Source: Gemmatimonadota bacterium (GTDB lineage: Bacteria; JBHIER01; G020348925). Taken from it: a DNA stretch of 64,000 nt. The stretch's first letter is position 1; every line of letters begins with the position of its first letter. Shown here piece by piece: positions 16,535 to 55,364 of this stretch. The stretch covers positions 2,557,688 through 2,621,687 of the forward strand of contig CP070758.1 in the NCBI GenBank assembly GCA_020348925.1. The letters are read 5' to 3'. Both the position numbers and the translations under genes were made by a program. The notes beneath the pieces are model-generated. The model was given only the letters and a program-made list of their open reading frames with translations, searched no databases and was not told the DNA's origin.

Positions 16535-19513
16535 ATGTCCAAGTGTTTCCTTGCGACGCTGTTGGTTCTTCTCTCGTCACTCAGTTCGGCCGCTCTCGTT
16601 GAGGCCAGCCCGGATGTGCTGATTGCAGTTAATATTTCGGATTCCGGAGCGATGGGTACTTTGAGGGAAATGCCGGTTTCTGTCAACTACCGGGGTTACG
16701 GATATCTCGTTGCCACGGTCGACACCGACGATATTGAGCGGCTGAAAAAGGCCGGAATTGAATATGAGGTTATTGATGATGAGGCATGGTCCGAACCGTA
16801 TTTTCTGATTACGAGACCGAAAGCGGAAGCGCTCGGTCAAATCCCGGATCAGGGGGAGGTTCTTTTTCAAACCGAGAGTGAGGCCTTTGTTAAAATCACC
16901 CTGGAGGAAGTTCTTGAGTTCGGTCGAGCCGGCTTTCAACTGACGCGGATCTTTCCGAAATCGCTCCCCCTGTGGGAGGACCGAGCTGAAGAGAAGGGCC
17001 GTATTCGAGAGAACCTTCTCGCCAGCCGGCAGACGGAGGATGTCATCGGGGCCATCGTGAATCAGATATCTCAGGAGATCATGCGATCGGATGTGCAGCG
17101 GTTGCAGGATTTTCAGACGAGGCTGTGGGCCAGCGATTCGCTCTGGGCCTCTGCTCAATGGATCTACGACCGCTTCGTCGAGTACGGTTACACGGATGTC
17201 GTATTCGAGGATTTCGTCATATCCGGAAATGATCCTATCTGGTATCAGCAGGGATACGATGTCCCAGTGCGGAATGTCGTTGCGACAAAACCCGGCGTTC
17301 TCCATCCGGAAGACATCGTCATCATCGGTGGCCATTACGACTCGATTGTCTTTGACGGCACGAACCCGTTCGTCTGGGCTCCGGGTGCCGACGACAACGC
17401 CTCGGCCATAGCTGCTATGCTGGAGGCAGCCCGTATTCTGGCCGACGTCGATCTCGAGTGTACTGTCAAATTTGCCTGCTGGACAGCGGAAGAGGTCGGC
17501 CTCTACGGCGCATGGTATCATGCAGCCCAGGCCTACGATCGTGGCGAGAACATTGTCCTGAATATCAACTTGGACATGATCTCGTACCAGCACGAGGGCG
17601 ATCCTGAACGAGACGTCACCGTCTATTACAATCCCTCCGCCCAGGCCTATGCGGATCTGATGTCCGAGATGGCCAATACGTACACGACCCTTGTCCCTGT
17701 ACCACGCTTTGCCGGCGGCGGCAGCGACCACGTGCCTTTCATGCAATACGGGTACGACATCGTCTACGCCGAGGAGGGTGATTTCTTTCTGACACCCCAC
17801 TGGCATATAAGCACAGACGTTGTCGAAAACATGGACTTCGGCTATATGGGCGAGGTTGTCAAAATGAGTCTGGCCACTCTGGTTACTGTGGCCGGTCCTC
17901 CTGCAACATTGGTTGTGCCCGAACCTGTGCTTGGCTTCGAAAGTTACGTCATGGACGAAGATGATGAAGGCGGAAGTAGTGGTAATGAAAACGGATATTT
18001 CGATGCCGGTGAGACCATTCAGCTTTCCGTCACGCTCTCCAATCACGGTGATGCCCAGGCGACTGACGTCACGGGTCGCTTAGCGATCGACGATCCCTAT
18101 GTGACCGTTTTAGACGATGTGGTTCCTTATGAAAATATACCCCCTGGGGGAGCCGGAACGAGCCAGAGTCAGTTTCGGTTTCTCATATCGGAGGACTGCC
18201 CAAGTGGGCATTTTCTAAATTTCTCCCTTCATACGACAGCCTCAGGAGGGATTACGAATACGACGTATTTTTCGGTGCGTGTTATACAGCCGACCGTTGT
18301 CTATATCTCGTATGATCTTGAAGAGATGAGCGGGGACGGTGACGGGAATCCTGAACCCGGCGAGACGGTGGAGATGTCCCTGCTCTTGGGGAACGGCGGT
18401 TTGAGGGGTGCTTCGGGGATTGTTGCCGAACTCTCGACGGAAGATGGAGACATAACGGTTTTAAAGAGTGAGATTGTTTTCCCCGATATGGCCACTCAGA
18501 GTGTTGCTGAGAATACGGGCGAACGCTTCAGCTTCTCGGTGAATGCAGCGGCAGCACTTCATACTGTCGATTTTACGGTTCGCCTGTCCGAGGGAAAAGG
18601 GTATTATCGGATCGATATTCCCATTCGCTGGCTTATGGGACAGGGTACGGTCCGACTTGTGGCTGACGACGGCGGGGGATACTTTGGCTACTACATCGAA
18701 GCGCTTCAAAATGTGGGCGTCCCCTTCGATATCGATGAAATCCAGGGCGTACCTTTGCCCCACTCCGTGGATCTCAAGGATTATGCGGAGGTGATCTGGT
18801 TCACGGGTGCCGATGAGAGCAATACATTGACACCCGAGGATCAGAACGACCTGCAGGATTTTCTTGATAATGGTGGGAGGTTGCTTCTTTCCGGATGTAT
18901 GATCGGGTATGAGATCGGGACGACACCCTTTTACCGGAATTACTTGCACGGAAGCTACGTTTCCTTTATGACGATGCTCCATCATCTCAACAGTGCGGCC
19001 TCGAATCCGGTCCAGAGTGACATAGACATTACTCTGGCTAGAGATGGGTATAACGGACAAGCTTTCACGGGGGAGGTTGATCCCATCAGCCCGGCCGTTT
19101 CGATTTTCGATTACGACCGAAGTACTGAGGAAGGACCTGGGATCGTCAGATCGAGCGGCAGTGGTGCCCTCGCTGTGGAAACCTCGGTATACAAGCTCGC
19201 CTATTTCTCTTTCGGTCTGGAAGGTATTGTCCCGACGGAGGATTGTGCGCAGGTGATTGCTGATGTGTTGGCGTGGTTTAAAGAGCCGGGTATCGATAAG
19301 GGGGACGTTGATGGCAACGGAGCGACGGACATCATCGATGCAGTTGTGGCGGTGAACATTGTTCTGGGTATGCACCAACCCGATGAAGACCAAATGGTTC
19401 GGGCTGACATGAATTATGACGGAGCCATAGACATCATCGATGTCGTCAGAGTCGTCAACGCCGTGCTGGGAACGAGTGGAAGAGCAGTTCATGACAATGA
19501 CACGGATATGTAG
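16535..19513 (+). CDS. Secreted M28 zinc peptidase + 2 Ig-like domains + Rossmann-like domain + dockerin (copy 1)
   Basis: Signal peptide; GGHYDS, PGADDNAS, AEEVG, NLDM, GSDH; dockerin GDVDGNGATDIIDAV...ADMNYDGAIDIIDVV. Confidence 0.92.
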   Translation: MSKCFLATLLVLLSSLSSAALVEASPDVLIAVNISDSGAMGTLREMPVSVNYRGYGYLVATVDTDDIERLKKAGIEYEVIDDEAWSEPYFLITRPKAEALGQIPDQGEVLFQTESEAFVKITLEEVLEFGRAGFQLTRIFPKSLPLWEDRAEEKGRIRENLLASRQTEDVIGAIVNQISQEIMRSDVQRLQDFQTRLWASDSLWASAQWIYDRFVEYGYTDVVFEDFVISGNDPIWYQQGYDVPVRNVVATKPGVLHPEDIVIIGGHYDSIVFDGTNPFVWAPGADDNASAIAAMLEAARILADVDLECTVKFACWTAEEVGLYGAWYHAAQAYDRGENIVLNINLDMISYQHEGDPERDVTVYYNPSAQAYADLMSEMANTYTTLVPVPRFAGGGSDHVPFMQYGYDIVYAEEGDFFLTPHWHISTDVVENMDFGYMGEVVKMSLATLVTVAGPPATLVVPEPVLGFESYVMDEDDEGGSSGNENGYFDAGETIQLSVTLSNHGDAQATDVTGRLAIDDPYVTVLDDVVPYENIPPGGAGTSQSQFRFLISEDCPSGHFLNFSLHTTASGGITNTTYFSVRVIQPTVVYISYDLEEMSGDGDGNPEPGETVEMSLLLGNGGLRGASGIVAELSTEDGDITVLKSEIVFPDMATQSVAENTGERFSFSVNAAAALHTVDFTVRLSEGKGYYRIDIPIRWLMGQGTVRLVADDGGGYFGYYIEALQNVGVPFDIDEIQGVPLPHSVDLKDYAEVIWFTGADESNTLTPEDQNDLQDFLDNGGRLLLSGCMIGYEIGTTPFYRNYLHGSYVSFMTMLHHLNSAASNPVQSDIDITLARDGYNGQAFTGEVDPISPAVSIFDYDRSTEEGPGIVRSSGSGALAVETSVYKLAYFSFGLEGIVPTEDCAQVIADVLAWFKEPGIDKGDVDGNGATDIIDAVVAVNIVLGMHQPDEDQMVRADMNYDGAIDIIDVVRVVNAVLGTSGRAVHDNDTDM

Positions 19514-19551: not shown

Positions 19552-22509
19552 ATGCGAAGTGTACGTGTCGTTTTGATGCTGATCGTCTTGTTCTGTTTGA
19601 CCGGTCGTCCTCATGCGATTCTTCAGAACGGGAAACCGTATTTGGTGACGATCCCCAGGACCGATCCTGCCGTCACCTCATTCCTTCAGGATCAAAAGAT
19701 CCCTGTCTGTTTTCAAACGGACGCATGGTATTTTGCCCAGGCGGGGGAGGCCGATCTTGAACGATTTGAGGCGGCAGGGCTTGCCTGGGATATCATCGAT
19801 GACGAGGCATGGTCCGAATCGTACTTCTTTATCACGAAACTTCGTGGAGAGGACCTCGGAGAGATCCCTCATCTGGGGAACGTCCTTTTTAGAACTGAGA
19901 AAGAAGCTCTTGTCAAAGCCGGTTTACGGCAAGCTCTGGAGTTTGCAGAGGCGGGCTTTCAATTAACCCGAATCTTTCCGAATGCGCTTCCCCTTCGTGA
20001 AGATCAGATTGAAAAAGACGAACGTATCAAAGACAAACTGAGATTTCAAAGTCGAACGGACGATGTCATCGGGGCCATCGTGAATCAGGTCTCTTTGGAA
20101 ATCGTTCAATCGTACGTTCAGCGGTTGCAGGATTTTCGGACGCGGTTCTTTGCCAGCGATTCGATCTGGGCGGCCGGACAATGGCTCTACGATCGGTTCG
20201 TCGAGTTCGGGTACACGGATGTTGTCTTCGACAATTTCGTTGAGTCAGAATACGGTGTGCCGGTCAGGAATGTGATTGCCACGAAACCTGGTGCTCTCTA
20301 TCCCGACAGCGTCATCATCATCGGTGGGCACTATGATACCATCGTGTACGATGCCTCGGACTATTTTGTCTGGGCACCAGGGGCGGATGACGATGCATCG
20401 GGTGTCGTCGGGGTGCTGGAAGCGGCTCGAATTTTGGCCAATGTCGATCTTGACTGCACGGTGAAATTCGCCTGTTGGACTGCCGAGGAAATAGGTTTGT
20501 ACGGAGCTTGGCATTACGCGACGGAGGCCTATGATCGGAGAGAGAGAATCGGGTTGTACATCAATTATGACATGCTTGGAAACCTGGACGAGAACGATCC
20601 GTCGAGAAATGTCACCATTTATTTGAATGCCACTGCCCAAGCATATGCCGATCTCATGGCTGAGATGGCCACCGAATATACCAGTTTGGTCCCCGAGCAG
20701 TTTCCGGCTTTTACCGCCGGCAGCGATCATGCTCCTTTCATGTTACATGGATACAACATCCTCTACGCGCAGGAGGGTGATTTCAGCCCGTACATCCATA
20801 CTGGTTTTGATGTTACAGATAATATGAACTTCCCTTATATGTGTGAAGTCGTTAAAATGGGGCTGGGTACTTTGGCCGCAGTTGCCGGTCCTCCAGCTTC
20901 AATCTCTGTTACCGAACCAGTTATTACTCTCGAAAGTTACGACATTGATGATGATGCGCAGGGTGGGAGTATCGGGAACGGGAACGGCTACTTGGATACA
21001 GGTGAGACAATTGAAGTGACAATCGCTTTGTATAATTACAGTGATTCAGATGCACATGGGGTCAGGGCTCGCCTTGTAACAGATGACGCATATGTCTCCA
21101 TTGTTCACGATGAGATCTCTTTTGGAGATATTCCCAGCGATGGAATGGGTTCAAGCCATGATCAATTCCTTTTCGTTATTTCAGAAGATTGTCCTGTGGG
21201 CCATTTCTTGGATTTTTCTGTGGAGGTCACTACGACAGATGGATTTGGTTGGATGAGCTATTTCACCGAGCGCGTTGTGCAGCCTTCTATTTTGTATGTC
21301 ACATTCAGTATTGAAGACACCGATGGAAATGGCAATGGAGCCGCTGATCCAGGTGAGACAGTAGATATGTATCTTCTTATGGGGAATGGTGGATTGAGAA
21401 GTACCTCTGGAACGGTGATTGAACTTGCGACCGAGGATCCTGATGTAACGATCATTGACAATGAGATCATGTTTCCAGATATGGACATTGGCACTGTGGC
21501 TGAGAATACGGATGATGCCTTCGTCTTTTCCCTTGACGAGGCGGCGGACGTTCACACTGTCCCCTTTACGCTGCATATTTCAGAGGGACAGGGATATTAT
21601 CAGATCAGCATACCTTTTTATGTGCTCATAAAGCAGGGAACAGTCCGACTGGTTGATGACGACGGCGGGACGGACAAACTCTATTTCTACCTCGAAGCCC
21701 TCCAACTCGCTGGCGTTCCGTATGACATCGAACACATTAACGGACTGGCCATGCCCCATTCCGATGATCTGGACGATTATTCAGAGGTGCTCTGGTATAC
21801 GGGTACTGTGGAGACCAATACACTGACAACGGACGAGCAGAGTGATATCGAGGCCTTTCTCAATGGAGGCGGGAGACTTCTCCTGTCCGGAAGTATGATC
21901 GGTTACGAGATCGGCGATTCCCCGTTTTACAGAAATTATCTGCACGGAGATTACGTCTCCTTTCTGACGCTGCTTCATCATCTGAACGGTGTCCCTTCAA
22001 ATCCCGTCGTCGGCGATATGGATATAACCTTGGCCACGACTGGGCTTTGTGCTCAGGGGTTTGCCGGTGAGACGGATCCTATCAGTCCGGCCGGTTCAAT
22101 TTTCGATTACGATCGAAGTACGCAGGAGGGACCTGGGACCGTCAGATCGAGCGGGAGTGGGGCCTTGGCCGTGGAGACCTCGGTGCACAAACTCGTCTAC
22201 GTCTCCTTTGGTGTCGAAGGTATTGTGCCTGTTGAGGACATGGCCCAGGTGCTGGCTGATGTCTTGGCGTGGTTCAAGGAGCCGGGGGTGGACAAGGGCG
22301 ATGTGGATGGGAACGGATCGACGGACATCATCGATGCGGTCGTGGCGGTGAATATTGTCCTGGGCATGCATCAACCGGATGAGGGGCAGAGAGCTCGGGC
22401 AGACATGAACTACGACGGGTCGATAGATATTATCGATGTTGTAAAAGTTGTCAACGCTGTGCTGGGTAGTAGCGGTAAAGTCTCTGCTATTGGTTCCAAA
22501 GACATGTGA
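19552..22509 (+). CDS. Secreted M28 peptidase-dockerin (copy 2)
   Basis: GGHYDT, GADDDASG, AEEIG, NYDM, GSDH; same C-terminal chassis and dockerin. Confidence 0.92.
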   Translation: MRSVRVVLMLIVLFCLTGRPHAILQNGKPYLVTIPRTDPAVTSFLQDQKIPVCFQTDAWYFAQAGEADLERFEAAGLAWDIIDDEAWSESYFFITKLRGEDLGEIPHLGNVLFRTEKEALVKAGLRQALEFAEAGFQLTRIFPNALPLREDQIEKDERIKDKLRFQSRTDDVIGAIVNQVSLEIVQSYVQRLQDFRTRFFASDSIWAAGQWLYDRFVEFGYTDVVFDNFVESEYGVPVRNVIATKPGALYPDSVIIIGGHYDTIVYDASDYFVWAPGADDDASGVVGVLEAARILANVDLDCTVKFACWTAEEIGLYGAWHYATEAYDRRERIGLYINYDMLGNLDENDPSRNVTIYLNATAQAYADLMAEMATEYTSLVPEQFPAFTAGSDHAPFMLHGYNILYAQEGDFSPYIHTGFDVTDNMNFPYMCEVVKMGLGTLAAVAGPPASISVTEPVITLESYDIDDDAQGGSIGNGNGYLDTGETIEVTIALYNYSDSDAHGVRARLVTDDAYVSIVHDEISFGDIPSDGMGSSHDQFLFVISEDCPVGHFLDFSVEVTTTDGFGWMSYFTERVVQPSILYVTFSIEDTDGNGNGAADPGETVDMYLLMGNGGLRSTSGTVIELATEDPDVTIIDNEIMFPDMDIGTVAENTDDAFVFSLDEAADVHTVPFTLHISEGQGYYQISIPFYVLIKQGTVRLVDDDGGTDKLYFYLEALQLAGVPYDIEHINGLAMPHSDDLDDYSEVLWYTGTVETNTLTTDEQSDIEAFLNGGGRLLLSGSMIGYEIGDSPFYRNYLHGDYVSFLTLLHHLNGVPSNPVVGDMDITLATTGLCAQGFAGETDPISPAGSIFDYDRSTQEGPGTVRSSGSGALAVETSVHKLVYVSFGVEGIVPVEDMAQVLADVLAWFKEPGVDKGDVDGNGSTDIIDAVVAVNIVLGMHQPDEGQRARADMNYDGSIDIIDVVKVVNAVLGSSGKVSAIGSKDM

Positions 22510-22904
22510 GATCTGATGTGCGGGTTACGTGCAATTTTTGAAACATAGAGGAGTAATACCGTAGAAATGTTTTAACAAGTGAGTTGAATGGAGTATTATC
22601 CCTGTCTCGTCGTTGGTTGAAAGTCCACTTATTTCGAGGTGTAAAATCTCGTTTTCACAATGTAAAAAATTCAAAAACTGTCCGTTTTCGGATACACCCT
22701 GTACCACCAGCGGACACTTCACATAGTGCGTTCTGTGCGGAACCGTGTCTACTGTATCACAAGAGAACGTGAACGTACCGGCATGTTCTTTGCTTTTTCT
22801 ACACTAAGAATGTATGTTGAGAGCATTCTCTGAATACACGGCAGAATGAAGGGCACTTTTGTGCTCTTCAGTTGAACGTTTTCATGTGTTCGAAGGAGGT
22901 GACC

Positions 22905-23818
22905 ATGATGAAGTGTTTTCATCTTCTTCTCACTCTGGTACTTCTTTCTTGCCTTGTCGTTGCCGTCGAAGCATCGCCACAGGAAGCACACCCCTATCTC
23001 ATCAAAATATCCCGGGCTGATTCGAACGTCGTTACGGTTCTTCAAGAACGAAATATTCCTGTCTATTTGAAATTGAAGAAATGGTACTTCGCAGGAGCAC
23101 ATGCACCCGATTTCATTTATCTCAGGGAGAAGGGAATAGAGTATGATGTGATTGATGAGGAGGCGTGGTCGAAACCGTACTATTTAATAACCAGACCTCG
23201 GAGAGGGGAGCTCGGTGTTATTCCCGAGGTCGGCAGAATTCTTTTTCAGGAGGATAAGGAGGCGATTCTCAAAAAAGGTAGCAATCAATTTCTCGAACTG
23301 GTCAGTGCCGGGTATACATTGACGCGGCTTTTTCAGAGATCGCACCCAATCTTGGAAAGGAAACACAGTACATTACCTTCAATTGTCTGGGAAGCCGGGT
23401 CAGACGACGTAATCGAGACTATCGTCAATAATGTTTCCGAGGACAGTCTTCGATCATATGTTCAGCGTTTGCAGGATTTTCAGACCCGGTATTTCGAAAC
23501 AGATTCGATCAAGGCATGTGCTCGCTGGTTCCGAAACACCCTTCTCGATTTCGGATACACCGATGTTGTCTTCGATACGTTAACCAATCAGCCACTTGAT
23601 CATGCAATCTGGAACGTAATCGCCACCAAGCCCGGTTTTTTCTATCCTGACAGTATCGTCATAATAGGTGGCCACTTTGATTCCATCGTTCGTGATGGGA
23701 CGAATCCGTATGTCTGGGCGCCCGGGGCAGGCGATAACGCCTCCGGGACGCGGTGGTGACGGTCAATATCGTCTGGGGTATGCATGAGCCTGATGAGGGG
23801 GAAACGACACGGGCTGAT
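22905..23818 (+). pseudogene. M28 peptidase paralog with a ~2-kb internal deletion, fused out of frame to a dockerin remnant
   Basis: SD AGGAGG and ATG at 22905; reads to GAGDNASG, then stops at 23759. DNA from ~23747 encodes DAVVTVNIVWGMHEPDEGETTRAD, which is mid-dockerin in the paralogs. Confidence 0.88.
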
Positions 23819-23998
23819 TTGCAGTACAGGTATGATATTCTATAATCAAACATTGATAAAAATTGCTCTTATTGTGAGGTGAAAATGCGGATGTATCTTT
23901 CGTTCCCCAGTGTTTGCGTATGAACACTGAGGGTTCCCAGTTGTGATGAGACAGTACCCTGTCGCGCCTGTCTTATTCTTTGAAAGGAGGGAGTCACA

Positions 23999-26944
23999 AT
24001 GAGGACAAAAGTGCTCACCGTGCTGTCACTTCTGTTTTTGACAGTGGTTGCTTTCTGTCCCAAGGGAGTGGACTCTGCAGATGCTGACGATCTGTTCATG
24101 ATCTCTGTATCACTCCATAACAGGGACTACCTGCAGCATGTCAAAAACACAAGTGTATCATACGGCCACATAGACAATCAGACGGCCGTCGTCCTTGTTC
24201 GGGAGAAAGACCAGTCAATATATCAAAAGGAGGGAATCGCCTATGAGATTTTAGGTACAGTAACAGATAACTGGCAATACGTTCTCGTCTCTTTTCGGGA
24301 TCAGTACCAAAAGAAAAAGCTTGAGCACATTGGACGAATTGTTACAATCGGTGAAAACCGGGCTCTCATCAGAGTCAAAAACGATTGGGATCGTTTCGGG
24401 CCGAAATATGGAATTGAGTTGATCAACGCGTTTTTTATTCCCCAGGTGAAATCTATTCGGAAACTGTCCGATGTCTCCCCTTCCCCTCTTCTCAATGACA
24501 TCATCCACCAGGTATCGCCTGTCATGATTTACAATTACATCCTTGATCTTCAAAATTTCCAGACGCGCTTCGGCTATGCTGATGGGTGCAGCCTGGCGGC
24601 GGATTATCTCAAAGATCAGTTCGAAAGCTGGGGACTGGATGTGACCGAGCACTGGTTTATCAATGAAGGGTGGATCGAGGTCGGATATCCGGCCGATCCT
24701 CAGCGAAACATCATCGCCACGCTCCCTGGTACGATATATCCGGATGAGATTGTTGCCATATGCGCCCATTATGATTCCCGGTCGGATGATAATTGGAACT
24801 TTGCGCCAGGAGCCGACGACGATGCCAGTGGTACGGCGGCCGTGCTTGAGATGGCCCGCATTCTGAGCCAATATGGTTCTGAAAGGACTCTGCAGTTTAT
24901 ATGCTTTGGTGGGGAGGAGCAGTGGATGATAGGGTCGTACGCCTATGTTGAAGAAAGGAAAGCTGCCGGAGATAATTTTGTGGCCGTTATCAACAATGAT
25001 ATGATCGCATATACTGCGGACGGTCAATTCGAGGATATCGAAGTTGATTGTATTCCGGAGACCGAATGGCTGGCCGACGAGGTTATGGCTCTCGCGTCAG
25101 ATTTCGTGACATATCCTGTGTCGAAGAACGTCGGCTGGGAGAATGTTTCCGATCATACACCCTTCTGGGAGAATGAATACCCGGCCATCGAATTGGCGGA
25201 AGACGAGGCCGATGATGTTTGGGGTGGTACGAATCCCTTCTACCATACTACGGGAGATGTGATCGAAACGTTGAACATGGAATTTGCCACGCAGATTGTG
25301 AAAATGAATGCTGCAGCCCTGGCATCATTAGCAGGTGTCGAAGTGTCCGGTGCTGTTGTGGTCTGCGCGGAGCATACAATGGATGACGACGATCTCGGTG
25401 AAAGCCTGGGAAATGGAAACGGATACGTGGATCCCGGAGAGGCTATCGAACTTGGATTGTCGCTGAATAATATAGGTCACGTTGATGTTTCAGGAGTGAG
25501 TGCGACGCTGGAATCGGAGGATGACCATGTTATCATCGTGCGAAACACGGTTGAATTCGGTGATATACTTTCGGGTGGTTCGGCTACGGGGCAGAATACC
25601 TACAGCGTTCACGTCTCCCAGGATTGCCCCAACGGCCATCAGATACTCTTCTCCGTCACAATTCAAGATGATCAGTCAAGATCGTGGGGAGGTGGTTTTG
25701 TTGTCGAAGTGCTTCAGCCTACTTTCGTGTTTCAAGCTCACTCCTTTGAGGAAGTGGAAGGGAATGGCAACACTGTGATCAATCCTGGTGAGACAATAAA
25801 CCTGTTTGTTCTCATAGAAAATGCCGGTTTGCGTGGTGCTTCTGGCATAACGGCTCGGCTTGAAACGAATGATTCTGACATAACGATTGCGGACAGCGAG
25901 GCTCTTTTGCCCGACATAGATGTGACGGGTGTTGCTGAGAACAGAAACGATCCTTTCACGTTTACGGTGAATGAGGAAGCTGACTCCCATTCGGTAACCT
26001 TCACCATGCATCTGACCGAAGGTCAGGGCTATTACCACATTGACATGACTGTTCAATTGATCATCGGACAGGGAAAGATTCTCTTCGTGGTTGACGACGA
26101 GGGGAATGACAATCAAAATTATTACATGGAGGTCTTTGAGCTTTTGGGTATTTCATATGACGTCTGGGATGTACAGGGGAGAGCCAAGGTTGTTTCCGAT
26201 ACACTTCTAAACTATCCAGAAGTGATTTGGTTTACAGGGCCTGTCGAGAAAAACACGTTGACTCCTGAGGATCAGAGTGCGTTGGATACGTATCTCAATG
26301 GTGGTGGAAGAATTTTACTGTCCGGAAACCTTATCGGTTCGGATATAGGAAATACATCTTTTTACAGAAATTTTTTGCACGGATACTATATCTCCTTTAT
26401 GACCATGCTGCACCACCTCAACGGGACGCTCAATAATCCGGTGAGTGGCGAAGTGGATATTGCACTGGCATCAACGGGGAATACAGCCCAGACTTTTGCT
26501 GGGGAAACCGATCCAATAAGCCCGGCCATATCAGTATTCGATTATGATCGGGATACTGAAGAGGGACCCGGTCTCATCAGGTCAAGTGGCAGCGGCGCTT
26601 TGGCGATGGAAAACTCGATCTATAAAGTTGTCTATTTCTCCTTTGGAGTAGAAGGAATTGAACCTCTGGATGATCGGGTGCAGGTTTTGCTGGATGTGCT
26701 CACATGGTTCAAGGAGCCGGGGGTGGATAAAGGCGATGTGGATGGGAACGGATCGACGGACATCATCGATGCGGTCGTGGCGGTGAATATTGTCCTGGGC
26801 ATGCATCAACCGGATGAGGGGCAGATGGCACGGGCCGACATGAATTACGATGGAGCGATTGACATCATCGATGTCGTGAAGGTCGTCAACGCTGTGCTGG
26901 GAACCAGCGGGAAAGCCTCTGTTGTTCATTCTAAAGACATGTAA
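23999..26944 (+). CDS. Secreted M28 peptidase-dockerin (copy 3; N-terminal subfamily B)
   Basis: CAHYDS, GADDDASG, GGEEQW, NNDMI, SDH; chassis and dockerin. Confidence 0.92.
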   Translation: MRTKVLTVLSLLFLTVVAFCPKGVDSADADDLFMISVSLHNRDYLQHVKNTSVSYGHIDNQTAVVLVREKDQSIYQKEGIAYEILGTVTDNWQYVLVSFRDQYQKKKLEHIGRIVTIGENRALIRVKNDWDRFGPKYGIELINAFFIPQVKSIRKLSDVSPSPLLNDIIHQVSPVMIYNYILDLQNFQTRFGYADGCSLAADYLKDQFESWGLDVTEHWFINEGWIEVGYPADPQRNIIATLPGTIYPDEIVAICAHYDSRSDDNWNFAPGADDDASGTAAVLEMARILSQYGSERTLQFICFGGEEQWMIGSYAYVEERKAAGDNFVAVINNDMIAYTADGQFEDIEVDCIPETEWLADEVMALASDFVTYPVSKNVGWENVSDHTPFWENEYPAIELAEDEADDVWGGTNPFYHTTGDVIETLNMEFATQIVKMNAAALASLAGVEVSGAVVVCAEHTMDDDDLGESLGNGNGYVDPGEAIELGLSLNNIGHVDVSGVSATLESEDDHVIIVRNTVEFGDILSGGSATGQNTYSVHVSQDCPNGHQILFSVTIQDDQSRSWGGGFVVEVLQPTFVFQAHSFEEVEGNGNTVINPGETINLFVLIENAGLRGASGITARLETNDSDITIADSEALLPDIDVTGVAENRNDPFTFTVNEEADSHSVTFTMHLTEGQGYYHIDMTVQLIIGQGKILFVVDDEGNDNQNYYMEVFELLGISYDVWDVQGRAKVVSDTLLNYPEVIWFTGPVEKNTLTPEDQSALDTYLNGGGRILLSGNLIGSDIGNTSFYRNFLHGYYISFMTMLHHLNGTLNNPVSGEVDIALASTGNTAQTFAGETDPISPAISVFDYDRDTEEGPGLIRSSGSGALAMENSIYKVVYFSFGVEGIEPLDDRVQVLLDVLTWFKEPGVDKGDVDGNGSTDIIDAVVAVNIVLGMHQPDEGQMARADMNYDGAIDIIDVVKVVNAVLGTSGKASVVHSKDM

Positions 26945-27090
26945 GAATTAATATTTTATGAGCTTAGTGTATTTACAGTGTAAGTCATACTATATGAAAT
27001 GTATTGACGAGTGAAGAGCATTTCTTGGATAAAAGGTACCTGAGAGAATGTTCATGAGTTGAGCATTTTAAATTGCTGAGGGAGGTGACC

Positions 27091-39874: not shown

Positions 39875-39875
39875 A

Positions 39876-42899: not shown

Positions 42900-43061
42900 A
42901 GTGGTATCGCACTGAGAATGTGTTTAAAGTGAAAATATTGAATTCCGAATGAATCATGTGAGCGGCGACCCCTGACGTGCATTGTTTCGCCATTCTTTTG
43001 TTACATAATGAGATACCGTCATCGAAGAGATTGCGTCGGACGGCTTGAAAGGAGAAAACCC

Positions 43062-46013
43062 ATGAGCCGGAAAAATTTTTTTCTCGCGTTGATCGTTCTT
43101 TCTGCGATCTGTCTTGGGTCAGGCTTCCTGTGGGCTTGGGACGATTCGAAGGATGTGCCTCTTACCGAACGATCCAGGGAAGAGCTATCCCGGTATTTTC
43201 ACGAATACCGTGATGATTTTCACGCAATGAAGACTGAGGAATTGAGCCGGAAGTATTATGAGGCATATAAAACCTTCGCCGATTCAGCCCATGCCTACGA
43301 TGTGCTTCACTATGAGCTCGATATTGTCTTTGACATCCCTGACCCTTCTCTCTCAGGTGTCGTCATTGTACGGTGTCGAAGTAATGAATCCGGTCTTTCA
43401 AATATCAGTCTGCACTTCGTTGCTCTCACTGTGGATGGAGTCCGGAGAGATGGAATGTCAGTGGGGTACGACCATGTGAATGGGGAACTCTATATCGATT
43501 TGAACGGAACCTTTGATGCCGGCGAGGAATTTGAAGTTGCAGTGACCTATCTCGGGACGCCGGCGGCCGGGTACTGGCACGGGAATGATTTTTTCTTCAC
43601 GTCTGTGGAACCGAGCCTGTCCAGGTATTGGTGGCCGTGTTTTGACGAGCCCTGGGATAAGGCCACCGCCGATATCTCTGCGACTGTGCCGGCCGGATAT
43701 ATCGTCGCGTCCAACGGTGTGTTAATCGAGACAATCGAAAATACCGTTGACAATACCATCACCTACTCATGGTCTGAATCCTATCCCATCGCGACCTATC
43801 TCGTCTCCGTAGCTATTGCACGGTATGTGACCTTCAGCGACACCTACTATCCTGTGACCGGCGGCGATCCCATGGAGGTTATTTTCTATACGCCTTCATA
43901 TCTGTTCAGTGCCTCCCAATACGATTTTGGTCGAACGGTGGAGATGATTGAGTGCTTTGTGCCCTTGTTCGGTGAGTACCCTTTCTTGGATGAGAAGTAC
44001 GGCACGGCTGTGGCCCCTATGAGTGGGGCTATGGAACACCAGACCTGTACGACATGGATGAACGGCTGGGTGACCGGAGATAGGGAGCGTGAGTGGACTG
44101 TCGCCCACGAGCTGGCCCATCAATGGTGGGGGGATATGGTGACCCTGTTGGATTGGCGCCACATGTGGCTTAACGAAGGCTTTGCTGTCTATTCGGAAGC
44201 CCTGTGGGCGGAATATCTATATGGGGAAGAGGGTCTTCGGATATATACCGAGCTGGCGATTCAAGAGTACTTTCAAAACTGGGAGGACAGTTCCCCTGCC
44301 AACCGACATCCCATTTATGATCCTCCTCCGGGAGCGCTCTTTTCTCCGGCCCAGTATGAAAAGGGCGGAAGCGTTCTTCACATGCTCAGGTTTGTGGTGG
44401 GCACCGATCTCTTTTTTGAGAGTATCCGGACATACGGCCAGCGCTATATGTACGGCAACGCCACGACGGATGATCTGAAGGCGGTGTTCGAAGAGGTGAC
44501 TGGAGAAGAACTCGATTGGTTCTTTGAGCAGTGGATTTACTCGCCGGGCTATCCCGAATATCAGTTTATGTGGGAAACGGAGGATATTGGCGGCGGAATG
44601 CATGAGGTGACAGTTCACGTGAACCAGATTCAGACGAACGCCCCCGTCTTCACCATGCCGGTGGAGTTCAATGTCTTCACGAGGAACGGCGAGGTGATCG
44701 ACACGGTCGTCATCGATCAGGCTTTTCAATCGTTCCAGATCACAGTAGACGCCGCACCGGATAGCGTCTTTCTCGATCGGTTCGGCTGGATATTAAAAGA
44801 CGTCACAACCATCACATCACCACTCCTTTCCTATACCGAGTATTCCGTAGATGATGAGGCCGGCAACAGTGATGGTCGTCCGGACCCGGGAGAGACCGTT
44901 CATCTTACGGTCAGTCTGCGCAACACCGGTGTCGATGCCACAGGTGTGGTGGTTACCCTGGTGACTCAGGATCCCGATATTATGATCACGGACAATGTCT
45001 CTGAGTACGGAAGTATAGCATACGGGGAGATTGGTACGAATGCGGACGACCCTTTCGTTTTCCAGGTTGAGAGCGAATGCTTGAGCAAAATGGCCCTTTT
45101 TATCGTGACCGTCAGCAGTGATAACGGATACACAGCTTCGGATTCAATCTATCTCTCCGTTGGACCCGCCACTATTCTTATTGTTGATGATGATTTCGGG
45201 GAGATGTATGAAGAGTACTATACGAAAGGATTTGCCACCATTTATCCAATTGATGTGTGGGATGTGGCCCTTGAGGGCGTGCCTGTAAATACCCTTCCTG
45301 ATTATGAAGCCGTCGTCTGGTTTACCGGTGATGATCGAACATCGACGCTCACGTCCGAGGAACAGGCCGTTCTCAAGGAGTATCTTGATGGCGGCGGCAA
45401 CCTGCTGGTAACCGGGCAGAACATCGGATACGATCTCGTAGGAGAAGGATCGATCGAGGACGCTGTGTTTTATCACGACTACCTCCACGCCGAGTATGTG
45501 AGTGATACTGCACCCGGAGATATTGTGACCGGGGTGGACGGGGATCCGATCTCCGGGGACATCGTCTTTTTGAGCTTGGGCGCTGGAGGTGCAGGCAACC
45601 AGAATTCACCCAGCGTCATCGAGCCGTTTCCTGGGGCAACACCTGTTTTTACGTATCAGGGTTATGGCGAGGCAGCGGCTGTCCGATACAGCGGTGAGCA
45701 TAAGGTCGTATACTTTGCCTTTGGCTACGAGGGCGTTGGTGCTTTCGGTGCCGATCACGCCAAAGTGCGGACTTCTCTTATGGATCATGTCGTCCGGTGG
45801 TTTCGGCACGAACCACAGAAGGGGGATGTCAATGAGGATGGTACCGTCAATATCCTCGATGTGGTCGTTGCTGTCAACATTATCCTGGGATTGGTGGAAC
45901 CGACCGAGGGACAATATTGGGCGGCGGATTATACCGAAAACGGTGAGGTTGATATTCTGGATGTCGTGAATATTGTGAACGCAATTCTCGGATCACCGAC
46001 ATCTGTGAAATGA
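43062..46013 (+). CDS. Secreted M1 family aminopeptidase + chassis + dockerin
   Basis: WWPCFDEP.DKAT, GAMEHQ, HELAHQWWGD...WLNEGFA.Y, YEKG..VLHMLR; dockerin GDVNEDGTVNILDVV. Confidence 0.93.
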   Translation: MSRKNFFLALIVLSAICLGSGFLWAWDDSKDVPLTERSREELSRYFHEYRDDFHAMKTEELSRKYYEAYKTFADSAHAYDVLHYELDIVFDIPDPSLSGVVIVRCRSNESGLSNISLHFVALTVDGVRRDGMSVGYDHVNGELYIDLNGTFDAGEEFEVAVTYLGTPAAGYWHGNDFFFTSVEPSLSRYWWPCFDEPWDKATADISATVPAGYIVASNGVLIETIENTVDNTITYSWSESYPIATYLVSVAIARYVTFSDTYYPVTGGDPMEVIFYTPSYLFSASQYDFGRTVEMIECFVPLFGEYPFLDEKYGTAVAPMSGAMEHQTCTTWMNGWVTGDREREWTVAHELAHQWWGDMVTLLDWRHMWLNEGFAVYSEALWAEYLYGEEGLRIYTELAIQEYFQNWEDSSPANRHPIYDPPPGALFSPAQYEKGGSVLHMLRFVVGTDLFFESIRTYGQRYMYGNATTDDLKAVFEEVTGEELDWFFEQWIYSPGYPEYQFMWETEDIGGGMHEVTVHVNQIQTNAPVFTMPVEFNVFTRNGEVIDTVVIDQAFQSFQITVDAAPDSVFLDRFGWILKDVTTITSPLLSYTEYSVDDEAGNSDGRPDPGETVHLTVSLRNTGVDATGVVVTLVTQDPDIMITDNVSEYGSIAYGEIGTNADDPFVFQVESECLSKMALFIVTVSSDNGYTASDSIYLSVGPATILIVDDDFGEMYEEYYTKGFATIYPIDVWDVALEGVPVNTLPDYEAVVWFTGDDRTSTLTSEEQAVLKEYLDGGGNLLVTGQNIGYDLVGEGSIEDAVFYHDYLHAEYVSDTAPGDIVTGVDGDPISGDIVFLSLGAGGAGNQNSPSVIEPFPGATPVFTYQGYGEAAAVRYSGEHKVVYFAFGYEGVGAFGADHAKVRTSLMDHVVRWFRHEPQKGDVNEDGTVNILDVVVAVNIILGLVEPTEGQYWAADYTENGEVDILDVVNIVNAILGSPTSVK

Positions 46014-46043
46014 AATTGACACTCTTTGAAAAGGGGGGACGTT

Positions 46044-48464
46044 GTGCACCGTGTTATTACTGTTCTTGTACTTATGCTTTTTGCAACCGCTACTCTCACC
46101 CATTCGGAGGTTAAGAAACTTGTACGGGTTGACTTGAGCAATCAATCGGAAGCAAAAATCCTCGATTTCATGCGTCTTCATCCTGATGTAACCTTCTACG
46201 GACGGGAGGGACGACTGGTGGACGTGGTGGCACCGCTTTCCCACCTTGAAGCGTATCGCAACCTTGGATTTCCCATTGAAGTTCAGATTGAGGATGTCGA
46301 TGAATATACGCAGGCATTGAAGCAACAGGGATACTTCGATCATTTTCACGATTACGATAGGGCCTTGGCTGAAATGCAGGCTGTTGAAGCCGCCCATCCT
46401 GAGATTGCACAACTCTATGATATTGGGGATGGCTGGGAGAAAACCCAGGGTCTGGCCGATCGGGACATCTGGGCGATCAAGATTTCCGATAATGTAACCA
46501 CGGAGGAAGCTGATGAGCCGGAGGTGCTGTATATGGCCTGTCACCATGCCCGGGAGATCATTACCCCGGAAATTGTCCTCTATTTTATGAACTACCTCGT
46601 GGATAACTACGGCAGTGATCCTGAGGTGACGGATATTGTGAACAATCGTCAACTCTGGCTCATACCCCTCGTAAACCCTGACGGTCATGCGGTCGTGTTT
46701 ACGGGGACTGACTGGCGCAAGAATAAGCGGGATAATAATGGAAACGGCCAATTCGATCTCAGCACCGATGGTGTTGATCTCAACAGGAATTACGGCTTCG
46801 CTTGGGGGTATGATAATATCGGCTCCAGTCCTGATCCTGCGAACTGGTTGTATCGAGGTCCATCACCCTTTTCAGAGCCGGAGACACAGGTCATTCGGGA
46901 TTTTGTCGAAGCCCACAGCTTTGTTATTTCACTTTCCTATCATTCGTACAGCAACTTGTGGCTGTACCCGTGGGCGTATCGGGCTCAAAACACGCCGGAT
47001 CATGAGATATTCGTCGAGATAGCAGATAGTTGTGTCGCTTACAACGGATATGAACCGGGGAACACCTTATCGGGTACGATTTACGTCGTTAATGGTGAAA
47101 CTGATGATTGGATGTACGGTGAGCAGACGACGAAATGCAAGACATACGCGTTCACTCCCGAGGTGGGTGGCCCTGCGGACGGTTTCTACCCGGACACATC
47201 GCGGAGAATACCCCTTATCCTCGAAAACCTGGGGCCGAATCTGTATGTGGCCCGGGCAGCCGAAAAATACACGCAACCGGCCATTTCCTATCTTGGTTTC
47301 AGCTTGGAGGAGGTCTCCGGTAACGGGGACGGTATCCTCGATCCTGGAGAGATGGTGAATCTCTTCATCCGAATCGAAAACAAGGGGTTGGGAGGTGTCT
47401 CGGAGATATCGGTTGTTCTTGAGACAGCCGATACTGATGTAACGATCAGCCACAGTGAAGTCACGTATCCAGGTATGGGGTGCAGTGCTCTCGCCGAAAA
47501 CTCGGAGGACCCCTTCACCATTTCGGTGAGCGATGAAGCACAGCCGCATGGTATCGTCTTCTCACTGCATCTCTCAGAGATTGAGGGAACGTATCAGGAG
47601 GATGTGACGTTTCAGTTGCTCATCGGCCAGGGAACGGTATTACTGGTTGCTGACGATGGTGGGCTTGATAACGAAAATTACTACATTGATGCTTTTCAAC
47701 ACCTGGGGATTCCCTACGAGATCCTGGACGTTCATGGAATGAGCAAGCCTCCCTCCAACGTTTTATTCGACTACTCAGAGGTGATCTGGTTCACAGGATC
47801 TTCGGAGCAGAACACGCTGACGCCGGAGGATCAGAGTGATCTTGCGGCGTATCTCAATAATGGCGGACGGTTGCTTCTGTCCGGAAGTATGATCGGTTAT
47901 GAGATCGGAACCACACCTTTTTACAGGAATTACCTCCACGCCAGGTTTGTTTCCTTTTTGACACTGCTTCATCATCTCAACGGAACGCCAACGAATCCCA
48001 TCGGCGGTGGGATGAATATTGCATTGGCTTCAGGTGGAAGCAATGGACAGGGATTTGCCGGAGAGACCGATCCCATCAGCCCGGCTGTTTCCGTATTCAA
48101 TTATGACCGGAGCACCGAGGAGGGACCTGGAATCGTCTCTTCAAGTGGCAGCGGGGTCTTGGCTGTTGAAACGGCAGAGTACAAGGTGGTGTACGCGTCC
48201 TTCGGTTTGGAGGGGATCGAGCCTTTGGAGGACCGAGTGCAGGTGTTGGCGGATGTGTTAGCGTGGTTCAAGAAACCCGGCGTGGATAAGGGTGATGTGG
48301 ACGGCAACGGCACGACGGACATCATCGACGCTGTGATGGCGGTCAATATTGTGTTGGGATTGCATCAGCCGGAAGAGGATGAGATTGCCCGGGCGGACAT
48401 GAACTACGACGGAGCGATTGACATCATCGATGTGGTCAATGTCGTCAACGCTGTTCTTGGATGA
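46044..48464 (+). CDS. Secreted M14 zinc carboxypeptidase (carboxypeptidase T-like) + chassis + dockerin
   Basis: HHARE, NPDG, WRKN, GVDLNRNY, FSEPET, YHSY, FTPEVG; dockerin nearly identical to those of the M28 copies. GTG start inferred. Confidence 0.92.
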   Translation: MHRVITVLVLMLFATATLTHSEVKKLVRVDLSNQSEAKILDFMRLHPDVTFYGREGRLVDVVAPLSHLEAYRNLGFPIEVQIEDVDEYTQALKQQGYFDHFHDYDRALAEMQAVEAAHPEIAQLYDIGDGWEKTQGLADRDIWAIKISDNVTTEEADEPEVLYMACHHAREIITPEIVLYFMNYLVDNYGSDPEVTDIVNNRQLWLIPLVNPDGHAVVFTGTDWRKNKRDNNGNGQFDLSTDGVDLNRNYGFAWGYDNIGSSPDPANWLYRGPSPFSEPETQVIRDFVEAHSFVISLSYHSYSNLWLYPWAYRAQNTPDHEIFVEIADSCVAYNGYEPGNTLSGTIYVVNGETDDWMYGEQTTKCKTYAFTPEVGGPADGFYPDTSRRIPLILENLGPNLYVARAAEKYTQPAISYLGFSLEEVSGNGDGILDPGEMVNLFIRIENKGLGGVSEISVVLETADTDVTISHSEVTYPGMGCSALAENSEDPFTISVSDEAQPHGIVFSLHLSEIEGTYQEDVTFQLLIGQGTVLLVADDGGLDNENYYIDAFQHLGIPYEILDVHGMSKPPSNVLFDYSEVIWFTGSSEQNTLTPEDQSDLAAYLNNGGRLLLSGSMIGYEIGTTPFYRNYLHARFVSFLTLLHHLNGTPTNPIGGGMNIALASGGSNGQGFAGETDPISPAVSVFNYDRSTEEGPGIVSSSGSGVLAVETAEYKVVYASFGLEGIEPLEDRVQVLADVLAWFKKPGVDKGDVDGNGTTDIIDAVMAVNIVLGLHQPEEDEIARADMNYDGAIDIIDVVNVVNAVLG

Positions 48465-53627: not shown

Positions 53628-55364
53628 TTAGGGACAGTCATCCAGTCCCAGAATGAGGTTCACGATTTTCACGGCATCCAGGATATTGACAACACCGTCG
53701 CCGTCACAATTGCCCGAGGGTCCGTTACAATCGATTCTCAGGGATTGATCCGGTTCAGGTTCGTGTAATTCGAGAATCGTGTTTATGACGAAGAGGGCGT
53801 CCATGATGTCGACGACGCAATCGTGATTCGCATCGCCTTTTATGTTTTCACAGACGGTGATCGTCAGGGCGTCAGTATCTTTTGCCAGAGGGTCGGATTG
53901 AGCGGTGGCCGTGAGCGTGACCGTGTTCACCATTCCCTCCGTGGCAGTTGTAGGAATAAGACACATGATCTCAAGGGTGGTATCCGTGCATGCCTGAAGA
54001 GAGAGCGCAAATGAGTCGGGATTCAAAGTCCAACCTCGAGTATCTGTCGCTGTCACCTCGTATGTGAATGTCCGGGCCTCGGGATTCGTAATGGCGAAGG
54101 AAGGGAAGAGAGTATCTCCGATTGATCCCCCTAAAGTGGAAACAGCCAGGACTGAGACTTCGGGAGGGTGGATGGATTCGGGAATTTCCCGGGTGATACA
54201 ATGGATGGCGCCGCCGAAGCGTGGGGCGAAGTGGAGACAGCTGATGGGAATAATCTCATAATCCGGTAGAGCCGTTTGATACGTCGCAAGTGCTTCTGAG
54301 TCGGTGGGACTGTCGTACACCGGCACAAAGACCTGCTTGTCGAGGATGAGTGAATTCACATATGTGCAATAACTTGAAACCGAATTCACTTTGTACATGG
54401 GAACGCGAAGGACGTCAAATGTGCTTCCAGTGTAAGTCTTCAGCGTGCTGAAAATAGTGGCAGCATTTTCCAGGAGAGCGTACTCCACAGCCTCGGTATC
54501 CATAAATTTTGCCACTAAAACTGTGTTGGCATTTAAAAATTTGGCCCACATGTCAATATGGGCAAGATTTGCGCATTCCTCAAACACCTGAAAAACGAGG
54601 AACCGGTCACAACCGAAGTACGTTGCCATCAAAGAATCTGCCTGTTCAGAGGTTAACTCTGGATTTTTGTTGTGAAAGTAGTCTGTGGAAACAAGTAATC
54701 CCTTGCCGTCCGTCATAAAATTTCCCCCGTCGTATTTAAAATCGAAATCGTAGCAATCGAAGCAGTAGTGTTGGCAAAAAAAGGGAGGAAGACCGTCAGA
54801 TGCAGTTAATCTTTCGATATATTTTGTATCAATTCCCACCAAACGGTCGTCTGAATCATAGACGAAAAAGGGTCCGCAGTCCCGCATCCAGAATAGATTA
54901 CTTGAATACGTGAAAAATGAGATATTATCCAAAGCGCAATGCTCATTGATAAGCAGACTCTCGACGGTATTGAAATTCTGTTCATTGCGCACACCAATGA
55001 ATATCGTGTTTTCAGGATCGATGTGTTGGACCATCGATAATAGAATTCTGTCCAATACTCCAGCAAATTCATGATCCCAGTAAATGAGGACGCCCTGGCA
55101 GGGCTCGAACTCGGCCGGAGTTCGGACGGGTGAAGAAGGTGGCTGTTGAATGCCCTCGAATTCAACCGTCATCGGGGTAATAGGAAATTCTCTGTTCAAA
55201 AATTCTTTCAACCAGGGCAGAGCTTCGAGTTCGATGTGTTTGTAGCCTGTTGTTTCTGTTGCAGTTGAGGATACCGTGGTGCTTACAAGCGGGTCGGGAG
55301 AAACGTATACTGAGCTGAGTATGATCAAACACACCACGGTATTTCGAGCGGATCTGGGAATCAT
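53628..55364 (-). CDS. Secreted agmatine/peptidyl-arginine deiminase (PPAD-like) + Ig-like domain + dockerin
   Basis: Start inferred at ATG 55364 after GGAGG/AAGGA. PAEFEP, WMRDCGP, DGGNF.TDG.G, HIDMW.KF, YVN.LI, GGAIHCIT (catalytic Cys); dockerin GDANHDCVVDIMDA...DGDGVVNILDAV. Confidence 0.88.
   Translation of the reverse strand: MIPRSARNTVVCLIILSSVYVSPDPLVSTTVSSTATETTGYKHIELEALPWLKEFLNREFPITPMTVEFEGIQQPPSSPVRTPAEFEPCQGVLIYWDHEFAGVLDRILLSMVQHIDPENTIFIGVRNEQNFNTVESLLINEHCALDNISFFTYSSNLFWMRDCGPFFVYDSDDRLVGIDTKYIERLTASDGLPPFFCQHYCFDCYDFDFKYDGGNFMTDGKGLLVSTDYFHNKNPELTSEQADSLMATYFGCDRFLVFQVFEECANLAHIDMWAKFLNANTVLVAKFMDTEAVEYALLENAATIFSTLKTYTGSTFDVLRVPMYKVNSVSSYCTYVNSLILDKQVFVPVYDSPTDSEALATYQTALPDYEIIPISCLHFAPRFGGAIHCITREIPESIHPPEVSVLAVSTLGGSIGDTLFPSFAITNPEARTFTYEVTATDTRGWTLNPDSFALSLQACTDTTLEIMCLIPTTATEGMVNTVTLTATAQSDPLAKDTDALTITVCENIKGDANHDCVVDIMDALFVINTILELHEPEPDQSLRIDCNGPSGNCDGDGVVNILDAVKIVNLILGLDDCP

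Follow-up and report, generated by a model that had tools for sequence, protein, structure and literature searches.

The closest described counterpart of the system reported here comes from Candidatus Stygibacter (Cloacimonadota), for which a putative cellulosome-like complex, inferred to degrade polypeptides and polysaccharides, has been put forward (Williams et al., 2021; PMC8542988). As far as that account describes it, dockerins are found on GH18, GH57, S8/S53 and gingipain-like C25 enzymes, and the scaffoldin bears the C-terminal domain (CTD) of a type IX secretion system (T9SS). The record cellulosome system, that of (Pseudo)Bacteroides cellulosolvens, is given as 78 cohesins, 31 scaffoldins and over 200 open reading frames (ORFs) with a dockerin (PMC5590126), and the amylosome of Ruminococcus bromii (PMC4611034) and the mucinolysome of Limousia (PMC12997984) are described as applying the cellulosome principle to another polymer. 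Here we describe an array of 12 consecutive genes for exported peptidases and a deiminase, each with a C-terminal dockerin, in a 64,000-nucleotide stretch of DNA (the window; genome coordinates C1:2557688-2621687) of an uncultured sediment bacterium of a very rare lineage. The reading that we favour, with a probability of about 60%, is that this diversified peptidase set is displayed at the cell surface by cohesin-dockerin binding to T9SS-anchored proteins.

Like Stygibacter, so far as it is described, the host is a diderm of the Fibrobacterota, Chlorobiota and Bacteroidota (FCB) group having leader-bearing enzymes with C-terminal dockerins, C25 included, and a cohesin protein with a T9SS CTD; a system of this kind is already known, by inference, from the Cloacimonadota (PMC8542988). 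Stygibacter is described with few enzymes and one 3,755-aa scaffoldin with carbohydrate-binding modules (CBMs), whereas the host has dockerins in about 293 frames and cohesins in 50 or more, and adds the 12-gene peptidase array, a private dockerin subtype and a cassette of immunoglobulin-like (Ig-like) module, ThuA-like domain and dockerin (PMC8542988). Duplicated calcium-loop dockerins, Pfam cohesins, adaptors with both modules and several dockerin types are features shared with the B. cellulosolvens cellulosome as published (PMC5590126). Unlike the clostridial cellulosomes, the host is diderm, its anchoring is by T9SS CTD and not by S-layer homology (SLH) domain or sortase, most of its cohesin carriers are small, and its cargo is made up of peptidases, FG-GAP, LamG, PKD, leucine-rich repeat (LRR) and other proteins, not cellulases. 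The amylosome and mucinolysome are described from Firmicutes with glycoside hydrolase (GH) cargo (PMC4611034, PMC12997984), whereas the recognisable enzymes here are mainly peptidases. What is new is the scale, comparable with or above that of the record cellulosome system as described (PMC5590126), a genome of 5 Mb holding about 293 dockerin frames and 73 or more cohesin modules; a 12-gene array whose private dockerin is better conserved than the enzymes; a shared cassette with an unnamed ThuA-like domain; and a clear alternation of dockerin for CTD together with a missing export route. The cellulosome principle would hereby reach protein degradation, in a diderm whose scaffolds are anchored via the T9SS.

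The array, its enzymes and their dockerins

The array occupies positions 16535-55478 of the window and has 12 consecutive large ORFs, 11 on the forward strand and the last on the reverse, plus one short ORF (Table 1). Position 55364, given as its end in the initial annotation, is an internal ATG of the deiminase frame. Eight of the genes encode full-length Peptidase_M28 proteins of 980-1035 aa (Pfam, E 1.6e-29 to 4.3e-37), here called M28_1 to M28_8, and the others an M1 aminopeptidase, an M14 carboxypeptidase, a gingipain-like C25 enzyme and a deiminase. Domains were called at the Pfam curated cut-offs (Dockerin_1 22.9 bits, Cohesin 24.1 bits), and all 12 proteins have a C-terminal Dockerin_1 domain above the cut-off (26.6-39.2 bits). 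In 11 of these dockerins there are two 12-residue calcium-loop motifs at a spacing of 34 residues, while that of the deiminase has one canonical loop, its second repeat being broken by a Cys-containing insertion. By hydropathy, all 13 N-termini, that of a deleted copy included, have charged residues ahead of a hydrophobic segment of 12 residues or more, and the true start of M28_6 is likely an internal Met just ahead of the hydrophobic leader. The 12 intact genes, deleted copy, leaders and families of the initial annotation are borne out by these ORFs, Pfam and hydropathy, and its enzyme set of leucyl-aminopeptidase-like M28, M1, M14 and gingipain-like C25 peptidases stands as claimed; the double-loop dockerin that it saw on all of them holds as to the dockerin in every case and as to the two canonical loops in all but the deiminase.

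The short ORF appears to have arisen by an internal deletion of roughly 650 codons, as its residues 3-287 align in frame with a paralog and dockerin residues 935-961 (74% identical) follow directly in another frame. No other run of dockerin frames in the genome is as long as the 12 of the array (three runs of 7 come next), and on a rough estimate chance cannot yield a 12-gene run where about 7% of genes are dockerin-tagged. The initial annotation had considered a single clustered array to be the outstanding feature. Since dockerin-bearing M28 genes stand in tandem in Zixibacteria loci too, and a published account puts the idea forward for Cloacimonadota (PMC8542988), the array is less singular than was claimed there.

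The nearest solved structures to the array M28 domains are the leucyl aminopeptidases of Vibrio and Aeromonas (E 1.5e-16). Residues H312, D314, D333, E365, E366, D393 and H446, which we take to be the M28 metal ligands, are invariant in the alignment of all eight copies. The N-terminal ~210 residues of the M28 proteins returned no Foldseek match at E<=0.001 with an AlphaFold2 model whose mean predicted local distance difference test score (pLDDT) is 64; the first ~115 residues of this model (pLDDT ~85) form two beta-alpha-beta-beta-alpha-beta units, and a role of the N-domain as a prodomain is a guess. The C25 enzyme is nearest to gingipain R (E 1.4e-9) and its prodomain resembles that of Kgp. 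The deiminase matches the Porphyromonas gingivalis peptidylarginine deiminase (PPAD) at E 1.2e-35 over chain residues 6-315, across the catalytic domain, compared with 2.7e-18 or weaker for other PAD_porph-family entries and 2.8e-17 or weaker for named agmatine deiminases, and is by these scores much nearer to PPAD than to the agmatine deiminases. Pfam also gives an Ig-like match at its residues 460-542, after the catalytic domain.

In P. gingivalis, gingipain and PPAD both end in a T9SS CTD, PPAD being composed of a catalytic domain, an Ig-like domain and the CTD. The C25 and deiminase genes of the array are convergent neighbours, and as with the P. gingivalis proteins (PDB 1cvr, 4ief, 4yt9, 6i0x) a propeptide-bearing C25 enzyme with Ig-like domains here adjoins a PPAD-type deiminase with an Ig-like domain. 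By analogy the convergent pair recalls that of gingipain and PPAD, although in the host a dockerin takes the place of the CTD and the sequence similarity is remote (C25 E 1e-9).

The dockerins of seven array M28 proteins, the array M14 protein and one M28 protein encoded elsewhere (C1:1499772-1502783) group into one exclusive clade, 9 of the 301 modules of the genome (FastTree support 0.999), referred to here as the private subtype. These are 75-93% identical to the dockerin of M28_6, with all remaining modules at 58% or less, and the M1, C25, M28_7 and deiminase dockerins are likewise at most 58% identical to the private subtype. The shared scaffold proposed in the initial annotation is in keeping with the one exclusive, conserved subtype of 8 of the 12 dockerins; one scaffold for the whole endo- and exopeptidase set is not supported by sequence because the other four dockerins are of other types. 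Across the eight M28 paralogs, pairwise identity averages 0.36 for the N-domain, 0.52 for the catalytic domain, ~0.50 for the Ig-like modules and 0.64 for the alpha/beta (ThuA-like) domain; for the dockerin it reaches 0.72, or 0.83 when M28_7 is left out. A dockerin conserved above the catalytic domain is expected from selection for one common partner, and gene conversion would give an equal pattern; the private subtype as such argues for one common partner. The set of nine enzymes that share the private dockerin, against some 300 others, also makes a clean natural experiment on dockerin specificity.

The initial annotation regarded the dockerin alone as the tag. It is instead a cassette of about 400 C-terminal residues which BLASTP and MAFFT find in common to the array M28, M14, M1 and C25 proteins (11 genes), while the deiminase and an LRR protein at the window edge share with these the dockerin alone. 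The cassette consists of an Ig-like module (GNGDG..DPGET, with weak CARDB matches), an alpha/beta domain of ~225 residues and the dockerin, in that order, and is 34-66% identical between catalytic families. The model of the alpha/beta domain (pLDDT 86.5, predicted template-modelling score 0.89) has structural matches at E 6e-8 to 1e-6 to GH42 domain B, the IFT52 N-terminal domain and ThuA-like proteins, and suggests a class I glutamine-amidotransferase-like (GATase1/ThuA-like) fold, apparently non-catalytic; no Cys or His is invariant in its alignment.

Genome counts given below as by own profile (dockerin, cohesin, CTD and alpha/beta domain) come from genome-specific or iterated profiles. By own profile the alpha/beta domain is present in 44 frames of the genome, 37 of these with a dockerin and 16 with a T9SS CTD, and it follows catalytic or Ig-like modules and precedes the C-terminal dockerin or CTD. 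Its peptidase partners are M28 (9 frames), C25 (5), M1 (4), M14 (2), M6 (2), S8 (2) and a C39-like enzyme (1), and its other partners Omp28 (3), beta-helix (2), DUF362 (2) and Kelch (1), the remainder having no recognised partner. Outside the host genome it was identified by sequence in M6, S8, S53 and M10 peptidases. Look-alikes in predicted structures (template-modelling score 0.84-0.88) are M1, S8, M6, Omp28 and GH18 proteins from Cloacimonadota, Calditrichota, Zixibacteria, Ignavibacteriota, Bacteroidota and Fidelibacterota, most of them ending in a T9SS CTD, and the domain is also predicted in some archaea. No Pfam family was found over the aligned part of these look-alikes, and a feature search of a protein atlas gave leads only (best rows 0.88-0.90), with no Pfam family common to the top three clusters and a DUF4960 cluster at rank 20. 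Metagenome proteins 56-78% identical in this domain are again M14 and M28 proteins with a dockerin, three of them on one 17.6-kb contig. An unnamed ThuA-like domain common in T9SS cargo is thereby brought to notice.

In a maximum-likelihood tree of 40 alpha/beta domains, those of M28_1 to M28_8, M14 and C25 from the array form one 100/100 clade, which also takes in two genes from other parts of the genome, an M28 gene and an unclassified one. The M14 copy is nested among the seven M28 copies (98/91). Cassettes of the genome's other C25 genes fall elsewhere, and the closest partner of the array M1 cassette in the tree is that of an M14 gene at C1:1503653. From this topology the cassette tracks the array and not the catalytic family, which points to module exchange.

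A genome-wide cohesin-dockerin system

The source genome is a single contig of 5.04 Mb with a rated completeness of 96.3%. In GTDB r232 the phylum of the host has two species genomes only, that of the host and that of a sister (3.7 Mb in 670 contigs, 87% complete), and both are rich in dockerin and cohesin candidates, the sister having 271 and 97 of these, respectively, in a first-look search. The sister also encodes M28-cassette-dockerin genes, two of which are in tandem on one short contig. The other relatives compared have only the domain rank in common with the host. The array stretch is present, whole or in part, in eight DNA runs from sediment and mangrove metagenomes of three studies, the two best being possibly the source sample, and there was no RNA run among the matching runs listed.

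In the host genome, 148 of 150 scored candidates, out of 527 from a first look, match Dockerin_1, and the iterated own profile gives 301 dockerin modules in 293 frames. Pfam supports 209 of the 278 dockerin frames scanned at E<=1e-5; the 15 frames outside that scan comprise 14 with dockerin and CTD and one with a cohesin. A Cys pair (ADCNGDG ... GxC) is present in 181 of the 301 modules, whereas the cassette-linked dockerins are mostly Cys-less (22 of 37) and the array subtype is without the pair. The cargo of the 278 frames is very mixed, its commonest families being FG-GAP, Laminin_G_3, PKD, TSP_3, He_PIG, LVIVD, Fib_succ_major and LRR, as counted from the top 25 families per scan batch, which could hide rarer families such as GH. 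Peptidase catalytic families are present in at least 38 of these frames (M28 10, C25 6, M14 5, S41 5, S8 5, M1 4, C1 2, M64 1) and InhA-like MAM domains in 8 further ones, and peptidases are the largest recognisable enzyme class of the dockerin cargo. When the catalytic domains of the window were used as phmmer queries, a dockerin was found in 10 of 15 M28 frames, 5 of 9 M1, 5 of 8 M14, 7 of 10 C25 and 2 of 2 PAD frames. A single GH31 is the only glycoside hydrolase among the cargo families listed, and no search was aimed at CBM families. Plant-cell-wall glycoside hydrolases, which dominate the cargo of a cellulosome, do not do so among the listed families, and the system is no cellulosome in the strict sense. 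The genome search for dockerins suggested in the initial annotation was amply answered, and the picture of the array as a self-contained machine gives way to that of one cargo set in a genome-wide system.

Elsewhere in the genome, three consecutive genes with C25, cassette and dockerin lie together with a fourth cassette gene at C1:4665634-4683225 on the reverse strand. There is also a mini-array on the forward strand (C1:1497098-1506133) of beta-helix, dockerin and CTD, M28 with a private-subtype dockerin, and M14 with dockerin. A high-scoring dockerin match at C1:4080164-4080334 has one in-frame TGA and may stem from a broken gene or from two frames that adjoin.

The initial annotation had named the lack of any cohesin in the genome as decisive against its proposal. 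There are in fact 73 cohesin modules above the Pfam cut-off, in 50 frames, of which 40 also have a T9SS CTD and 26 a dockerin by own profile; the SLH or sortase anchoring of monoderm cellulosomes is replaced by these CTD endings. The carriers are mostly small T9SS-anchored proteins, with one module in 35 of the 50 frames and 2-5 modules in the other 15. As an upper estimate, the own profile gives 166 modules in 96 frames with up to 6 per frame, and 54 frames with both cohesin and dockerin. A homolog of the SprA translocon was identified, 130 of 150 scored matches to Por_Secre_tail are at E<=1e-5, and the own profile gives 262 CTD frames, which would show a T9SS complement of working size. SprA and a PilQ-type secretin indicate that the host is diderm. 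Four consecutive cohesin genes lie 14-23 kb downstream of the array (Table 1); the first three products are above the Pfam cut-off and the fourth, of 488 aa, scores 21.2 bits against 24.1, while the own profile counts 1, 2, 4 and 1 modules. All four have matches to the Pfam T9SS tails Por_Secre_tail, FlgD_ig or CHU_C.

In the favoured display reading, paralog expansion would have produced an exported set of eight leucyl-aminopeptidase-like M28 enzymes with M1, M14, gingipain-like C25 and PPAD-like deiminase enzymes, each held at the cell surface by binding of its C-terminal dockerin to cohesin modules, whose carriers would be exported and anchored in the outer membrane by the T9SS. The seven M28 enzymes and the M14 enzyme with the private dockerin probably compete for, or fill, the same type of cohesin, and the other four array enzymes (M1, C25, M28_7 and deiminase) probably sit on other cohesins. 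The array would then be the largest single cargo set of a display system with very mixed cargo throughout the genome, and its endo- and exopeptidases would cooperate on protein substrates. For sediment ecology this suggests cell-bound instead of free extracellular proteolysis.

The predominance of single-module carriers, the four array dockerins outside the private subtype and the mixed cargo would also suit a simpler arrangement, in which each enzyme is tethered to a single-cohesin anchor, or is released, with neither a multi-enzyme complex nor synergy by proximity. We consider this unlikely, since frames with several cohesins exist, the dockerins on 26 of the 50 cohesin frames would allow hierarchical assembly, and the strong conservation of one dockerin type over nine enzymes suggests a common site. 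That the dockerins are calcium-binding tags which stabilise the proteins or bind something other than cohesin, the null of the initial annotation, is highly improbable: non-cellulosomal dockerin-like modules without known partners are reportedly widespread, but cohesins and dockerins are co-expanded in the host and its only sister genome, occur together in the 54 frames by own profile and in the 26 at the Pfam cut-off, and no other part of the M28 paralogs is as well conserved as the dockerin.

Export and the alternation of dockerin and CTD

Several observations weigh against surface display as set out above. None of the 12 array proteins has a T9SS CTD by Pfam or own profile, and the intergenic gaps of the array are too short to hide one. 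A type II system was not found in the genome: T2SSL has no match (the control matches Escherichia coli and Caulobacter as it should), T2SSK has only a weak match below the cut-off, which is uninformative with its control matching in 10 of 14 genomes, and the sole secretin sits in a pilM-pilN-pilO-SPOR-secretin operon. With no CTD on them and no type II system found, the array proteins have no evident route to the surface. Their leaders were judged by hydropathy. As regards the cohesins, Pfam backs only 23 of 53 own-profile frames with cohesin and dockerin at E<=1e-5, and the own-profile cohesins may include other beta-sandwich domains. A Pfam-cut-off cohesin frame is within 14 kb of 21% of random genome points, so that the closeness of the downstream cluster to the array proves little, and cohesin modules are mostly less than 45% identical to one another.

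Choice of a partner for the array by proximity of this cluster was rejected for the same reason. Its cohesins are at most 43% identical to others, with the exception of one internal pair at 65%, and a partner of the private subtype could not be inferred from sequence.

The closest M28 matches from other species genomes reach only 26-41% identity and come from Zixibacteria, Ignavibacteria, Cloacimonadota and others. Among 89 frames with the M28 catalytic domain in loci of these other phyla, 49 have a CTD by own profile (16 of these with the alpha/beta domain), 14 have a dockerin and 26 have neither, some of the latter being cut by contig ends; the 49 and 14 endings suggest that dockerin and CTD are alternative endings of homologous enzymes. 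Three dockerin-M28 genes stand in tandem in locus L105, from Zixibacteria, and a pair of them in each of L039 and L087 (the three loci come from Zixibacteria and one unclassified bacterium), and small dockerin-M28 arrays thus appear to exist outside the host lineage. No literature linking Zixibacteria with dockerins was found.

In the host itself, 163 dockerin frames end within 40 residues after the dockerin and 102 have a CTD after it at a median gap of 56 residues. These 102 frames have a conserved dockerin, a linker of ~55 aa and a T9SS CTD tail (e.g., L134:1-2793 and L209:2560-5979), and thereby show independent export for at least part of the dockerin proteins.

The ~163 dockerin-terminal proteins might cross the outer membrane through the T9SS as passengers of cohesin-CTD carriers (hitch-hiking), in vesicles, or by some system not recognised here. 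The first of these amounts to an alternative to docking outside the cell: some 160-170 dockerin-terminal proteins without a T9SS signal, the array enzymes among them, would dock in the periplasm on cohesin-CTD carriers, and the T9SS would export the folded complex. This would agree with leaders but no CTD in the array proteins, with the 49 CTD and 14 dockerin endings among homologous M28 frames of other phyla, with the alpha/beta look-alikes that precede CTDs in FCB-group phyla, with the CTD at the end of 40 of the 50 cohesin frames and with the failure to find a type II system. Folded proteins are, moreover, described as passing through the SprA barrel of the T9SS (PMC9251779). However, the 102 frames with their own CTD can be exported alone and dock outside, no described case was found in the literature on piggyback export by the T9SS, and vesicles, the pilus secretin or another route are also conceivable; periplasmic docking is in our view rather more doubtful than the simple tether. 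If true, this would be the first case of hitch-hiking through the T9SS, the cargo would reach the surface already assembled, and it would explain a dockerin standing where relatives in other phyla carry a CTD. For surface display as favoured here, the concrete and testable question is raised of how CTD-free proteins leave a cell seemingly without a type II system.

Features of the window and flanking genes

Table 1. Array genes, an example of the ThuA-like domain and other dockerin or cohesin genes (window positions unless marked C1, the genome contig)
Feature	Coordinates	Strand	Description	Basis
LRR protein	1..2781	+	Unrelated dockerin cargo: LRR, thrombospondin type 3 repeats, dockerin (majority Cys type)	Window edge
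M28_1	16535..19513	+	Leader, N-domain, M28 aminopeptidase-like domain, two Ig-like modules, ThuA-like alpha/beta domain, dockerin (private subtype)	Pfam, alignments
M28_2	19552..22509	+	Architecture of M28_1, private dockerin subtype	
Internally deleted M28 copy	22872..23827	+	N-terminal 295-aa ORF (22872-23759), out-of-frame dockerin remnant (~23747-23827)	
M28_3	23999..26944	+	Architecture of M28_1, private dockerin subtype	
M28_4	27073..30051	+	Architecture of M28_1, private dockerin subtype	
M28_5	30370..33393	+	Architecture of M28_1, private dockerin subtype	
M28_6	33632..36739	+	Architecture of M28_1, private dockerin subtype	
M28_7	36932..39874	+	Architecture of M28_1, divergent dockerin outside private subtype	
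M28_8	39918..42899	+	Architecture of M28_1, private dockerin subtype (75% to M28_6)	
M1 aminopeptidase	43008..46013	+	Peptidase_M1 and M1_N, 1001 aa; Ig-like, ThuA-like and dockerin cassette of another lineage than rest of array	
M14 carboxypeptidase	46026..48464	+	Peptidase_M14 (E 4.4e-70), 812 aa; cassette 51-66% identical to M28 cassettes, private-subtype dockerin	
ThuA-like domain, M14 copy	47616-48290	+	Example of the domain	
Gingipain-like C25	48883..53445	+	Propeptide_C25 and Peptidase_C25 (E 3.3e-66), 1520 aa; Ig-like repeats, cassette, own dockerin type	
PPAD-like deiminase	53628..55478	-	PAD_porph (E 9e-47), 616-aa frame; Ig-like, dockerin of Cys-containing majority type, no ThuA-like domain	
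Cohesin cluster	C1:2626809-2635763 (window-extended 69122-78076)		Four consecutive cohesin genes, 262, 407, 1705 and 488 aa	

The LRR protein at the window edge shows that the dockerin tag is general in the genome. Directly upstream of the array, on the forward strand, lies the gene for a 1391-aa protein (11928-16103) with several hydrophobic segments, for which no Pfam family and no paralog in the genome were identified. Further upstream on the same strand, two genes for pyridoxal phosphate-dependent decarboxylases, one with a tyrosine-decarboxylase C-terminal domain, flank that of a Cache-domain protein (4603-6570, 6806-7636, 9188-11125), and a role in amino-acid use is possible for these genes. 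Just downstream of the array are genes for dockerin-free M48 and MA-clan peptidases (56056-57039, 62108-62974), and beside these are genes for an SH3 protein, an MscS channel and a CHASE2 adenylate cyclase.

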